64,000 nucleotides of DNA from Octopus vulgaris. Taxonomy: Eukaryota. Positions 11,139 to 34,783 of the stretch are shown piece by piece. How positions within the stretch are numbered: the first letter of the stretch is position 1; the number at the start of each line of letters is the position of its first letter. The DNA lies in assembly GCA_951406725.2 (NCBI GenBank), contig OX597814.1:70432001-70496000 (forward strand), read 5' to 3'. Both the position numbers and the translations under genes were made by a program. The notes beneath the pieces were generated by a model. It saw nothing but the letters and a program-made list of their open reading frames with translations, was not told the DNA's origin and ran no database searches.

Positions 11139-11464
11139 TGACTACCGAGTGATGTAACATATTGTATAGATAAATTTCCTCTATTTACATAATATTGAGG
11201 TCTCTTTCTTTCTTTTGTTATCTTACCGTTTTATCATATATATATATATATATATATATATATATATATATATATATATATATATATATATATATATATA
11301 TATATATATATATATATATATAAAAGTTGAGTTGTGGGGTATCGCACGAGTGGGATTATATAAGAAAAAAGGTTTGAAAATGCAATTTAAACGATGTTTA
11401 TTTACTTAACCGGTTTCACTCTTTGGTAAAAGATTGTCAAAAGTTACATTTAAGGAAACATTGA

Positions 11465-11690
11465 ATAATATGGGTTCAAAAAAAGTTTTTTACATAATTG
11501 TCACATTGAATATTATGCATTCAAAAAAGTTTTTTTACATAATTGTCACATTGGATATTATGGGTTCAAAAAAAGTTTTTTACATAATTGTCACATTGAA
11601 TATTATGCATTCAAAAAAGTTTTTTACATAATTGTCACATTGGATATTATGAATTCAAAAATGTTTTTTTATACATAATTGTCACATTAC
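11465..11690. repeat. 36-37-bp minisatellite, about 6 units (mirror at ~14450-14675)
   Basis: Unit ataattgtcacattgRatattatgSRttcaaaaaagtttttt(t)ac repeated. Confidence 0.9.
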
Positions 11691-14600
11691 ATGTATAAAT
11701 ATAGTGTTTGGTAACAGAGAAGTTCAATAGTATGATGAGAATATTTGGGAAAATTTGGCAGAAAAGGATAAAACAAATATATTATTGGGAATTGGTTGCG
11801 TTAATTATTGGTTGTCGCAAATTGTCACATTACATGTATATATATACAATCTTTGGTATATATATACAGCGTTTTGACAGCAAAAATTAAAATGGATTTT
11901 TTGTACATCTCAGAATATTTTAAGTATGTTTTTACTGACCTGTCAGTATTAGCAGAAAGGCTGAACTGAGAGAACAGAAGAAGTAGCCAATGTGGTGTAT
12001 ACTTCCCCTTTATGCATGAATGATTTTGGGGTTATCAGGAGGTTAGTATGCGGGTGTGAATAGATGTGTCCTTGCCTGCTGGTCAGACAGCGTCTGTTTG
12101 TCACACACATATATATACACACAAACACACACACACACAACAACACACACACACACACACACATAGTATACAAACACACACCACATACAAACAACACACA
12201 CACACACAGAACACACACACCCACACACAACGCACCCACATATATCACATATACACACAGCACACAAATATAACATGTATCTATATATAACATACACAGA
12301 TATATAACACACATACACACACAACACACACACACACACACACACACACACACACACACAACACACGCACACATACATACATAATATAAATATCACACAA
12401 ATACACCTAGCATATATATACACACATACAATACACACATACAGCATGTAAGTAATATACATACACAATATATGCATGCAATATACATACGCAATACATA
12501 CATATAATATATATATATATATAGACAATGCATATACATATATACACATATACATATAAATAGTGTTTACATACACATACATAGATGTACCACATATACA
12601 CACAACACACATACATACAATGCATACACATACACGTACGCATACATATAATATATATATACACGCACACACACATAACATACATACACACACAATGCAT
12701 ACATATATATACACGCAATGCATATACATGTATTGATGCACATATAGGACACCTACAATATACATATATACAGTGCACACATACACACAAATATATACAC
12801 TTAATTGTACACGTACATATACAATACACATACATACAATATACATATACACAATGCGCATGCAAATAATGTACATGTTTATACACACATAAACATGCAA
12901 ATAAATATACACACACACACATACACACACACACATATATATACACATATATATATATATATACACACATACATACATACATACATGCACATACATATAT
13001 TTTTTCACACACATACACACACATATATCTATATAAAAAATTCACCACCCCCCACACACACAAATTACAAACCTATAGCGTACACACTCAAATATATCTC
13101 TACATATTTTATATATATATGTGTGTGTGTATGTGTGTGAAAAAATATATGTATGTGCATGTATGTATGTATGTATGTGTGTATATATATATATATATAT
13201 ATGTATATATATGTGTGTGTGTGTATGTGTGTGTGTGTATATTTATTTGCATGTTTATGTGTGTATAAACATGTACATTATTTGCATGCGCATTGTGTAT
13301 ATGTATATTGTATGTATGTGTATTGTATATGTACGTGTACAATTAAGTGTATATATTTGTGTGTATGTGTGCACTGTATATATGTATATTGTAGGTGTGC
13401 TATATGTGCATGAATACATGTATATGCATTGCGTGTATATATATGTATGCATTGTGTGTGTATGTATGTTATGTGTGTGTGTGTGTGTATATATATTATA
13501 TGTATGCGTACGTGTATGTGTATGCATTGTATGTATGTGTGTTGTGTGTATATGTGGTACATCTATGTATGTGTATGTAAACACTATTTATATGTATATG
13601 TGTATATATGTATATGCATTGTCTATATATATATATATTATATGTATGTATTGCGTATGTATATTGCATGCATATATTGTGTATGTATATTACTTACATG
13701 CTGTATGTGTGTATTGTATGTGTGTATATATATGCTAGGTGTATTTGTGTGATATTTATATTATGTATGTATGTGTGTGTGTGTGTGTGTGTGTGTGTGT
13801 GTGTGTGTGTGTGTGTATGTGTGTGTTGTGTGTGTATGTGTGTTATATATCTGTGTATGTTATATATAGATACATGTTATATTTGTGTGCTGTGTGTATA
13901 TGTGATATATGTGGGTGCGTTGTGTGTGGGTGTGTGTGTTCTGTGTGTGTGTGTGTTGTTTGTATGTGGTGTGTGTTTGTATACTATGTGTGTGTGTGTG
14001 TGTGTGTTGTTGTGTGTTTGTGTGTATATATATGTGTGTGACAAACAGACGCTGTCTGACCAGCAGGCAAGGACACATCTATTCACACCCGCATACTAAC
14101 CTCCTGATAACCCCAAAATCATTCATGCATAAAGGGGAAGTATACACCACATTGGCTACTTCTTCTGTTCTCTCAGTTCAGCCTTTCTGCTAATACTGAC
14201 AGGTCAGTAAAAACATACTTAAAATATTCTGAGATGTACAAAAAATCCATTTTAATTTTTGCTGTCAAAACGCTGTATATATATACCAAAGATTGTATAT
14301 ATATACATGTAATGTGACAATTTGCGACAACCAATAATTAACGCAACCAATTCCCAATAATATATTTGTTTTATCCTTTTCTGCCAAATTTTCCCAAATA
14401 TTCTCATCATACTATTGAACTTCTCTGTTACCAAACACTATATTTATACATGTAATGTGACAATTATGTATAAAAAAACATTTTTGAATTCATAATATCC
14501 AATGTGACAATTATGTAAAAAACTTTTTTGAATGCATAATATTCAATGTGACAATTATGTAAAAAACTTTTTTTGAACCCATAATATCCAATGTGACAAT

Positions 14601-14695
14601 TATGTAAAAAACTTTTTTGAATGCATAATATTCAATGTGACAATTATGTAAAAAACTTTTTTGAACCCATATTATTCAATGTTTCCTTAAATGTA

Positions 14696-14736
14696 ACTTT
14701 TGACAATCTTTTACCAAAGAGTGAAACCGGTTAAGT
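14696..14736 (+). ncRNA. Hammerhead motif with U3-A8 core (mirror 11404-11444, minus strand)
   Basis: actt TTGACAA tcttt-tacc-aaaga-gt GAAA ccgg TT aagt. Confidence 0.6.
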
Positions 14737-31896: not shown

Positions 31897-32061
31897 TATG
31901 TATATCTATATATCTATATATATATGTGTATATATATGTGTATATATATATATATATACATATATATACATATATATACATATATATATGTGTGTGTATA
32001 TATATATATATATATATATATATATATACATATATACATATATATATACATATATATATAT

Positions 32062-33815
32062 ATTTCAGCAATCCTGATATGACTGATCTGGGCTGTATCA
32101 GTGATGTTACTCCCCAATACACTTTATCGGACATAACCTTTGGCGCTCCTGATGTCTTAGCAGCAATAAAGGAAATGAAGCATAATTCAGCAGTAGGTCC
32201 CGATAGGTTCCCTGCTTGTGTCTTGAAGATGTGTCAAAACCAACTTGCACCCCCTCTAGCCAATCTGTGGCGGAACTCACTGGATGCTGGATATATACCA
32301 GAAGACCTTCTATCCCAGTCTGTTGTCCCAGTTTTCAAAAAAGGAAACAAATCGCTTGCCGTGAATTACCGTCCAATCTCACTCATCTCTCATATCATTA
32401 AGGTATTTGAGAGAGTGCTGAGATCGCGTATGACTCACTTCCTTGAGAGTCATAATATGCTGAACTCCAACCAGCATGGATTCCGTAATGGGAGAGATTG
32501 CCTGACGCAGCTACTGCATCATTTTGATGACATTTTGAGAGCCTTGGGAGAGGGTTCCAACACTGATGTCATCTACCTTGATTTCAGCAAGGCCTTTGAC
32601 AGGGTTGATCATAAGATCCTTCTGAGAAAGCTGTCCAATATTGGTGTCACTGGAAAGCTGCTGCAGTGGATCAAGTGCTTCCTGTCTAACAGAACCCAAC
32701 ATGTTGTAGTTGAAGGAGTCAAATCCAGCCCAGCCAAAGTCAGCAGTGGTGTCCCACAAGGCACTGTGTTGGGCCCACTTCTCTTCACCATCTACATAAA
32801 TGATATTATTGACACCATCAAACACAGTAACATCAGAACCTTCGCTGATGATTCCAAGCTCCAGAAGGTCATCAATGGCGTGGATGACTGAATAAGCCTT
32901 CAGTCAGACCTACTGGCTGTTGTCCAATGGGCGGAAAAGAATAACATGTTGCTAAACGAAGACAAAATCGAACTGATCCACTTTGGAAGGGAGGACGCTC
33001 TGAAACTCCCATACTCTCTTCCTTCTGGAGAAATTCTCATGGCATCCAACAACATCAGAGACTTGGAAGTAACAGTGGACAACAACATAAGCTGGGCTAC
33101 ACATATAAGCAGCAAAGTTGACATGGCCCGCAGAATATGTTCCTGGATTCTCAGAACCTTCCAGTCGAGAGATTCCCACACTATTATCCTTCTCTTCTCC
33201 ACTTTTGCCCGACCCCACCTTGAATACTGCTGTCCACTGTGGTCTCCCTACACAAAACAAAATATTATGAGAATTGAAGCTCCCCAAAGGTCAATCACAA
33301 AAAAGATAGATGGCATGTCAGACCTTGACTACTGGGGTAGACTAGAGAAGCTGAAACTGTATTCACTCCAACGACGCCGTGAACGCTACATTATCTGTAT
33401 GATGTGGAAAATATTCCATCAGCACTGTCCGAATGATGTTGGCATCACCTTCAAAATACATCCAAGTTTTGGACCACGTGCCATCCGTCCACAACAAAAA
33501 TCTAAATCGCATCACATAACGACAATACGGCACAACTTTTTCACCTCAATTGGACCCGCTCTCTTCAACATTACACCAGGACACGTCAAAAAAGAAACTG
33601 ACCACACAAAATTAAAGAAGTCTTTGGACAAATTCCTTCAAACAGTCTCGGACAAACCACCCACACCCGGATATGTCTCCGCAAACAATAACTCTCTGCT
33701 CGAATGGGCCTCGGTGCCCAAATCCTGAATTGAAAGACTTCGCCAGGTGGTGCTATTAAGTTAGACATGGCCTGGGCCAATATTGGCCAAAACCTTTCTA
33801 AGTTATTCTAAGTTA
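32062..33815 (+). mobile_element. CR1-group LINE (family C), 5'-truncated with intact 3' end
   Basis: [40 protein letters not shown]; ends in tandem ttctaagtta. Confidence 0.9.
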
Positions 33816-34376
33816 TACATATATACATAGATACATATATATATATATATATATATATATATATATATATATATATATATATATATATATATATACATAT
33901 ACATATATATATATATACATATATATATACATATATACATATACATATATATATATATGTATGTATATATATATATATATATATATATATATATACATAT
34001 ACATATATATATATATGTATGTATACATATATATATATATGTATGTATATATATATATGTATATATATATATATGTATGTATATATATATATGTATGTAT
34101 GTATATATATATATATGTATGTATGTATATATATATGTATGTATATATATATATATGTATGTATATATATATATATATGTATATATATATGTATGTATAT
34201 ATATATGTATATATATATATATATATATATGTATGTATATATATATATATATATGTATATATATATATGTATGTATATATATATATGTATGTATATATAT
34301 ATTATATATATATATATATATATATATATATATATATATATATATATATATATATATATATATATATATAAATATG

Positions 34377-34783
34377 TAATAATAGTTATCGCCAAACTAA
34401 TACGGCAGTCCATAAATATAAGACTAAAGCTGTCGCTGATTAGCTCCAAGAGGCCATCGCCTCTATCTAGCTATATGACACACGAACCTGCGTCCATTAC
34501 AACCTTCGAACAGGGGAGGTCAGCCGCTTCACCTTGCTAGTCAGACATCTGCAGACATGTTTCAGGGATGTTGCCCTTTATCAATGCAACGTAGTCAGAC
34601 CCAGCAGGTGTCGCTAGCGACCGTCCATTCGAAGATTTTATTTACCTAATTTCAGTGGAATACATCCACTTGTTTTCAATAATAGAAATATTAAAATTAT
34701 TAAGTCTCTCTAAAGGAGATTACGGCAGCGTTACTGGATATTAATATTAGTTTGCCGATAAATATTAATATCCAGTAACGCTG
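34377..34783 (-). mobile_element. Second, diverged copy of the retrozyme-like unit with short fold-back
   Basis: Colinear with 29804-30168; 34746-34783 is an inverted arm spanning the unit junction. Confidence 0.8.
34549..34589 (-). ncRNA. Hammerhead with U3-A8 core
   Basis: ttgca TTGATAA aggg-caacat-ccct GAAA catg TC tgcag. Confidence 0.85.

Follow-up and report, generated by a model that had tools for sequence, protein, structure and literature searches.

Hammerhead motifs with a U3-A8 core in Penelope-like elements and retrozymes of Octopus vulgaris

A 64-kb stretch of the Octopus vulgaris genome (contig OX597814.1, positions 70,432,001 to 70,496,000 of the forward strand; hereafter the window) carries six hammerhead ribozyme motifs whose core has a U3-A8 pair in place of the C3-G8 tertiary pair. 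The motifs are type I hammerheads that reside in the 3′ repeats of Penelope-like elements (PLEs) and in retrozymes of ~360 bp. In our preferred reading, which we regard as probable, the altered core was likely inherited within lineages and is predicted to mediate weak cutting in a dimeric form. The U3-A8 core of PLE hammerheads is not new and was already published in 2014 (PMC4209133). A fresher point is that mismatched cores were also amplified, as C3·A8 retrozymes that lie between U-A lineages and a young C-G clade and as U3·G8 PLEs. The main interest of the system is this natural series of intermediates, together with the large number of motifs that would escape standard descriptors.

Six hammerhead sites in four insertions

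An initial sequence-only reading had reported six heptamers, and a second reading of the letters located all six at the claimed coordinates and on the claimed strands. Each heptamer is followed by domain II, GAAA, a 4-nt palindrome (CCGG, CGCG or CATG), U and H17, and a stem I of 4-7 bp closes the motif (Table 1). A type I core with a Watson-Crick 3-8 pair was found at 6/6 sites, and the pair is U3-A8 in every case. The mirror sites are identical inverted copies within the same insertion, and the six sites therefore represent four insertion events. A17 of hammerhead C (position 29979) is private to the window copy, and its family has C17.

Our own hammerhead descriptor was run on the window in a strict and a loose form, with 100 dinucleotide shuffles as background. 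The strict form recovered four of the six sites and matched nothing in the 100 shuffles. The loose form produced 0.31 matches per shuffled window, of which 0.04 were U-A, and two further weak, non-palindromic matches in the window (A-C at 43334 and G-A at 46781) fit this background. What excluded the family A pair from the descriptor was a U10.1·U11.1 mismatch at the opening of domain II; a pattern that does not require a paired domain II opening recovered 6/6 sites. The same opening is present in C3-G8 relatives from other hosts. At the level of sequence, the six sites are thus confirmed as genuine type I hammerhead motifs with a palindromic helix III.

Table 1. Hammerheads and their carrier insertions in the window
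Feature	Position	Strand	Description
Family A insertion	11235..14884	.	3.65-kb palindrome; two 5′-truncated PLE 3′-untranslated region (UTR) arms, set in (TA)n
Family A hammerhead	14696..14736	+	stem I 4 bp; core UUGACAA 14700-14706; domain II U·U base
Family A hammerhead, 3′ half	within 14696..14736	+	GAAA 14723-14726; CCGG; U16.1; U17 at 14732
Family A mirror hammerhead	11404..11444	-	core 11440-11434; inverted, identical to 14696..14736
Family B PLE open reading frame (ORF)	22607..24763	-	reverse transcriptase (RT), CX4CX2C linker, GIY-YIG endonuclease; 718 codons open; 5′-truncated
Family B hammerhead	22431..22470	-	3′ pseudo-long terminal repeat (pLTR), sense to ORF; stem I 7 bp; core UUGAAAA 22463-22457
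Family B hammerhead, remaining parts	within 22431..22470	-	stem II 2 bp; CCGG; A17
Family B mirror hammerhead	25801-25840	+	core TTGAAAA 25808-25814; identical to 22431..22470
Inverted copy of last 1.4 kb of family B element, at its 5′ end	24728..26131	+	96.7% over 1,404 nt
Retrozyme insertion C	29742..30345	-	~one 360-bp unit, 106-nt direct repeat and 136-nt inverted 5′ piece, in (TA)n
Hammerhead C	29973..30014	-	stem I 6 bp; core UUGAAAA 30008-30002; stem II 4 bp; CGCG
Retrozyme insertion D	34380..34746	-	same superfamily as C
Hammerhead D	34549..34589	-	stem I 5 bp; core UUGAUAA 34584-34578; stem II 4 bp; CAUG; C17

Penelope-like and retrozyme carriers

The family B hammerhead lies ~140 nt downstream of the ORF stop in an element that is flanked by (TA)n and has an inverted copy at its 5′ end. 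The RT-endonuclease frame announced for this element is indeed open over 718 aa, but alignment shows that it lacks the N-terminal ~60 residues present in loci L094 and L092. In family A, the palindrome is 95.7% self-inverted over 3,696 nt, and each arm corresponds to the 3′ region of an element in L092 that also has an ORF. Only the 3′ UTR of family A is present in the window, but in L092 its hammerhead lies beside a PLE frame of 736 codons with a frameshift near the end. A pLTR placement in the sense of the RT-GIY-YIG ORF was found for family B in the window, for family A in L092 and for a third family, F1, in L091 and L093. All four aligned PLE proteins contain the CX4CX2C linker, a feature common to Neptune and Nematis (PMC8557442). 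The carriers resemble Neptune/Nematis-type endonuclease-containing (EN+) PLEs (Arkhipova 2006, as given in PMC8557442) in their single ORF with RT and C-terminal GIY-YIG domains, CX2-5CxxC linker, inverted 5′-truncated copy and insertion in (TA)n, and the same source counts inverted copies at the 5′ end and insertion into (TA)n among the traits of PLEs. They differ in having the U3-A8 core rather than C3-G8, and the comparison is one of these features, with no named reference proteins in the RT tree.

How is the U3-A8 core distributed among related PLEs? Relatives of the family B protein numbered 804 at E<=1e-20 among 8,000 scored candidates, and the named ones come from bivalves and bivalve symbiont assemblies. 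Protein-guided searches provided 80 metagenome and 11 genome-bin loci, which were scanned for hammerheads with N3 and N8 left free. The bacterial genome bins (L323-L333, and matches such as P0036, P0044 and P0047) contain animal-type PLE proteins and hammerheads, likely as host contamination, and these proteins are annotated as bacterial GIY-YIG or hypothetical. The RT tree was built from 41 loci and the window protein; six entries with <200 RT residues were dropped, leaving 36 rows. Families A, B and F1 form one clade with 100/100 support and 54-57% identity between families (55% at the amino-acid level between A and B). This clade belongs to a 20-row group (support 80/92) that is poorly resolved internally and includes six C3-G8 elements from other hosts (L243, L245-L247, L251 and L324). 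The six have their hammerhead at the same 3′ position after the ORF, and several of them share the same GAAACCGG and U·U layout. The group also includes one U-A element (L326) and seven rows in which no hammerhead was found, some of them with short 3′ ends.

From the tree neighbors we infer C3-G8 as the ancestral state of the A/B/F1 group, and a single inherited change likely accounts for U3-A8 in all three families. The C3-G8 autonomous families of this genome are absent from the RT tree because no PLE RT was found beside their hammerheads in 6-kb stretches at single matches. In other hosts, U-A appears on four separate branches (L272, L284, L309 and L326) and A-U once, and the swap therefore recurs across PLEs. 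The A-U case, at L313:1969 (+), is an A3-U8 minimal hammerhead after a PLE ORF on a metagenome contig, and its sister in the RT tree is a U3-A8 element.

The units of insertions C and D are noncoding, ~360 bp long and 79-81% alike; the regions around sites 30008 and 34584 are 79% identical over 562 nt. Both match tandem arrays elsewhere in the genome, and insertion C is 95% identical to the array in L028. Head-to-tail arrays with 360-bp spacing and one type I hammerhead per unit occur in L028-L030, L033-L044 and L161. By these sequence features, C and D are classed as non-LTR retrozymes. They resemble the metazoan non-LTR retrozymes of Cervera and de la Pena (2020, PMC7229834) and of bioRxiv 10.64898/2026.07.22.740005, which are likewise noncoding units of a few hundred base pairs, each with a single type I hammerhead, and range from monomers to tandem arrays. 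In contrast to these, the superfamily mixes U-A, C-G, C·A and U·G cores by lineage, and it is known here from DNA units.

A and B thus fall into one PLE clade and both C and D into one starred U-A clade of the retrozyme tree, and the window therefore shows at most two origins. The proposal that the double change is compensatory rather than decay stands insofar as U3-A8 is the family norm; its attribution to three unrelated families does not.

Motif counts and mismatched lineages

To how much of the genome does this extend? The 2.8-Gb assembly (227 contigs) was scanned for exact patterns without stem checks, so that mirror and tandem copies are included, and the reversed pattern served as the control for every count. 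With a G/C loop III, U-A gave 12,149 matches (control 133), C-G 217 (control 220), U-G 417 (control 151) and C-A 310 (control 102); the two mismatched states were counted with this loop. With an A/T loop III, U-A gave 2,559 matches (control 525) and C-G 2,293 (control 139). In the helix-III class, U-A hence outnumbers C3-G8 by 14,708 to 2,510, or 14,708/17,218 paired matches (85%). The expectation that U-A would exceed single mismatches is borne out within the same pattern (12,149 U-A versus 417 U-G and 310 C-A). For family B, which has 1,936 matches (control 0), a hand count of the first 100 listed gave 90 U-A, 9 U-G, 1 G-A and 0 C-G; its consensus is accordingly not C3-G8, and mismatches are not as common as U-A.

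Minimal hammerheads without loop III account for 15,763 matches (control 669), and the first 100 listed, counted by hand, comprise 88 C-G, 5 U-G, 4 C-A and 3 U-A. These ~15,000 motifs belong mostly to two abundant C3-G8 families (L334-L345), and no PLE RT was seen within 1.5 kb of the 12 loci examined. A family with a C3-C4...G8 core adds 3,074 matches (control 0). An earlier notion that the whole genome had flipped to U-A was dropped because ~2,300 and ~13,900 further C3-G8 matches were found. U3-A8 constitutes roughly 40-45% of all motifs counted and is not the genome majority once minimal hammerheads are included. The anticipated large population missed by the CUGANGA descriptor does exist as sequence motifs, with ~14,000 U-A matches above control. 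Together with the 3,074 matches that have a C at position 4 (U4C), CUGANGA-fixed descriptors miss roughly half of the motifs counted here, and ribozyme and retrozyme censuses in such genomes therefore run low.

The history of the 3-8 pair among retrozymes was reconstructed from trees in which positions 3, 7 and 8 were masked. A length filter reduced 254 candidate units to 118, and 89 of these entered the tree (at most three per motif); a stricter tree held 58/69 full-length units, with one row a second-register duplicate of L063. Topology tests used 77 rows after we dropped 12 partial or junction rows. The units were sampled via state-specific searches, and the proportions in the trees do not represent population frequencies. 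In the 77-row set, a single C-G clade (p-AU 1e-39) and a single U-A clade (p-AU 2.5e-05) were both rejected, and the 3-8 pair changed state at least six times. C·A units (6 rows, 98/90) and C-G units (11 rows, 100/98) unite in a clade with 100/99 support, nested in turn beneath two starred nodes of the U-A state. Among themselves, the C·A copies show a median identity of 98%, and some are arranged as a tandem trimer (L161). A young subfamily yields 360 matches (control 0), and a hand count of the first 100 listed shows 48 U-A, 44 C-G, 8 C-A and 0 U-G.

This nesting suggests that the retrozyme lineage likely passed from U-A through C·A to C-G in two steps. Alternatively, a double change may have been followed by loss of G8 to A at the C7pG8 CpG, an order that takes three steps but uses a mutable site. 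An old, purely C·A retrozyme family was rejected: an unbiased pattern returned 14 U-A, 8 C-A, 1 C-G, 1 U-G and 1 A-A (n=25), and the earlier all-C·A appearance arose because units had been sampled through a C-A search. Adenosine-to-inosine editing was likewise considered as the driver of A-to-G core changes and rejected, with no excess in small numbers: the retrozyme stem branch has three A>G and three T>C among nine changes, and A>G is 1/8 on the stem to the U·G lineages.

Contigs from four runs contain head-to-tail 362-nt joins with C17 rather than the A17 of the window; their RNA label is a guess, and genomic tandems would give the same join. A comparison of L161:690-1040 with run X10 returned one 287-nt contig of depth 219 that keeps C3 and has no listed change at position 8. 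That contig otherwise matches a normally U-A subfamily and possibly represents a further abundant C3·A8 lineage, its RNA status again being a guess.

Among the PLEs, two subfamilies of family B (L094, L095, L096 and L098) carry U3·G8 and make up ~9% of the first 100 family B matches listed. One base at the 17/1.1 junction is missing from 12/12 U3·G8 copies examined and from 1/9 U-A copies. The subfamilies are 99% identical within themselves and 94-95% identical to the window lineage. One U3·G8 copy has an intact 775-codon frame. Its product and the window protein are 96% identical, and among 711 codons compared, 41 differ synonymously and 28 nonsynonymously.

We tentatively propose, at somewhat less than even odds, that these retroelements record the stepwise rewriting of a ribozyme tertiary pair, from U3-A8 via C3·A8 to C3-G8 in retrozymes and from U3-A8 to U3·G8 in PLEs, with both intermediates multiplied. 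If true, such a series would document in nature, and in many copies, how compensatory evolution crosses a catalytic valley. No description of amplified 3-8 mismatch lineages or of reversion was found in the literature searched; Lunse et al. on small PLE variants could list such cases, and absence from print is not established. Closely related natural series (U-A, C·A and C-G within ~90-94% identity; U-A and U·G within 95%) let one ask whether cutting rate tracks retrotransposition success.

Fold, proposed mechanism and alternatives

Covariation was assessed in 23 hand-picked retrozyme representatives, whose relatedness inflates scores. In this set, 96% of cells pair and 12/14 pairs change on both sides; the covariation score and paired cells were exceeded by 0/500 shuffles and lay above every slid control. 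The 3-8 pair is U-A in 15 representatives, C-G in 4, U-G in 1 and mismatched in 3, and the helix III loop also covaries (CG 12, UA 7, GC 3 and AU 1). Stems I and II are outside the search patterns, so that of all the evidence for selection on the fold, their covariation is the least affected by circularity. The stems and the 3-8 pair thus covary across retrozyme lineages, and the fold is likely under selection. The helix III palindromes extend to 6 nt, with predicted self-duplexes of -8.3, -7.5 and -4.6 kcal/mol.

We propose, from published work on PLEs and retrozymes, that a tandem or partially tandem transcript would carry two hammerheads of the same sense. The palindromic ACCGGU, ACGCGU or ACAUGU could pair between the two and generate a shared 6-bp helix III, in which setting U3-A8 would replace C3-G8 as the tertiary pair. 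Weak cleavage after position 17, probably with help from the protein of the element, would trim the element RNA or release 360-nt retrozyme monomers, and the monomers might be inserted into (TA)n by the RT and endonuclease of PLEs. This use of PLE enzymes is suggested by the inverted 5′ piece and (TA)n targets of the retrozymes. Selection would maintain the 3-8 pair in the long term but loosely, so that single-mismatch lineages still spread. Each window insertion has one sense hammerhead, the mirrors being antisense, and the window copies are therefore probably inert on their own.

Several published systems bear on this reading. The Cercyon PLEs of Schistosoma mansoni include ~1,300 U3-A8 minimal hammerheads versus ~2,000 C-G, and weak dimeric cleavage is reported for PLE hammerheads (Cervera and de la Pena 2014, PMC4209133). 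As in Cercyon, the octopus elements carry the covaried core in the terminal repeats of PLEs, are dispersed in large numbers and are predicted to fold as dimers. They differ in the 4-nt palindromic helix III, the carriage by a linker-bearing (Neptune-like) PLE clade and retrozymes and an approximately tenfold copy number, and the minimal hammerheads of this genome are mostly C3-G8. Natural U3-A8 variants were described in several hammerheads, with activity cited as shown in vitro and with the U10.1·U11.1 stem II opening seen in family A (Perreault et al. 2011, PMC3088659). The covariation is the same, but that paper presents rare variants, whereas here U3-A8 is fixed in families that have radiated. 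For an Anolis PLE, PMC11167929 reports that cleavage is lost with single mismatches at 3/8, is partly restored by the double change and depends on the protein of the element, and that insertion in vitro can proceed without cleavage.

Several observations weigh against this reading. As monomers, the motifs are not predicted to fold into the complete core. Stem II of family B has only 2 bp, and family A has a 4-bp stem I and a stem II that opens with U·U. The covariation representatives are our own choice and related to one another, and the pattern used to find them held the remaining core bases constant. Furthermore, the two U3·G8 subfamilies were amplified despite the junction loss, one of them with an intact 775-aa ORF, which shows that spread does not strictly depend on the pair; their amplification fits the Anolis result, in which mismatches kill cleavage without blocking insertion in vitro. 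Rfam models gave no gathering-score match on nine hammerhead loci, although the C3-G8 loci in the set failed too and the test is non-discriminating. An Rfam E-value scan of the window returned no hammerhead among the 150 of 253 matches listed, which are dominated by microsatellite matches to miRNA models.

In an alternative that we consider unlikely, the fold is kept for a non-cutting role, such as protein binding or the set-up of reverse transcription, and U3-A8 arose as a motif with hardly any catalytic activity drifted, almost neutrally, toward AT. In its favor, the window is AT-rich and the step from C-G to U-A consists of two AT-directed transitions; U3·G8 subfamilies with a slipped stem I were amplified recently, and C3·A8 retrozymes occur in a tandem trimer. 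Catalytic mutants of the Anolis hammerhead still insert in vitro, and Naiads are reported to thrive without canonical hammerheads (PMC8557442). Against it, paired states dominate the lineages (19/23 representatives are Watson-Crick, as are 92 of the first 100 listed matches in one retrozyme subfamily), one lineage apparently reverted from U-A to C-G, contrary to the AT trend, and U-A recurs on four branches in other hosts, with A-U once. A required 3-8 pair predicts this pattern, and the pair is known from the catalytic conformation.

An independent double change in each of three unrelated families is very improbable and largely refuted. In its favor, blastn comparison of the hammerhead-flanking DNA detected no significant similarity between A, B and C/D; the retrozymes may have switched independently of the PLE clade, and a single U-A clade among them is rejected. 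Nevertheless, the 55% identity of the A and B proteins within a 100/100 clade with F1, which is also U-A, and the position of the 79-81% identical C and D in one starred U-A clade mean that one change per lineage explains the window. Chance matches of AT-rich heptamers in AT-rich repeats, despite the occasional loose descriptor match, are refuted by the absence of strict matches in shuffles, the 12,149 genome matches versus 133 for the reversed pattern and a position after the ORF shared with the C3-G8 hammerheads of relatives.

The window holds a second noncanonical hammerhead at 11076-11138 (+), with a mirror core at 10061 (-), in an element at 9968-11236. Its core is C3-C4-G-A-A-G8-A (U4C), with a long stem II, a 9-nt near-palindromic helix III and a 6-bp stem I. 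It lies after a GIY-YIG fragment (10306-10881) and belongs to the U4C family counted above, whose genome matches are near-identical. In L213, this family has a 717-codon ORF in 2.58-kb head-to-tail tandems and no tblastn match to the family B protein. The U4C core is complementary to a segment of loop II, which could sequester it. U4C was noted for a viroid (PMC3088659), and no report of it in PLEs was found in the literature searched. A broken, C-rich PLE-like RT-endonuclease copy at 56121-58230 (+) is 28% identical to the family B protein, with no hammerhead found after it. In addition, non-LTR-type RT fragments or endonuclease-RT frames are located at 2114-3857, 20958-22335, 30498-33728, 38349-41488, 45333-48542 and 52525-54924, and the element at 45333-48542 combines AP-endonuclease, RT and zf-RVT domains.

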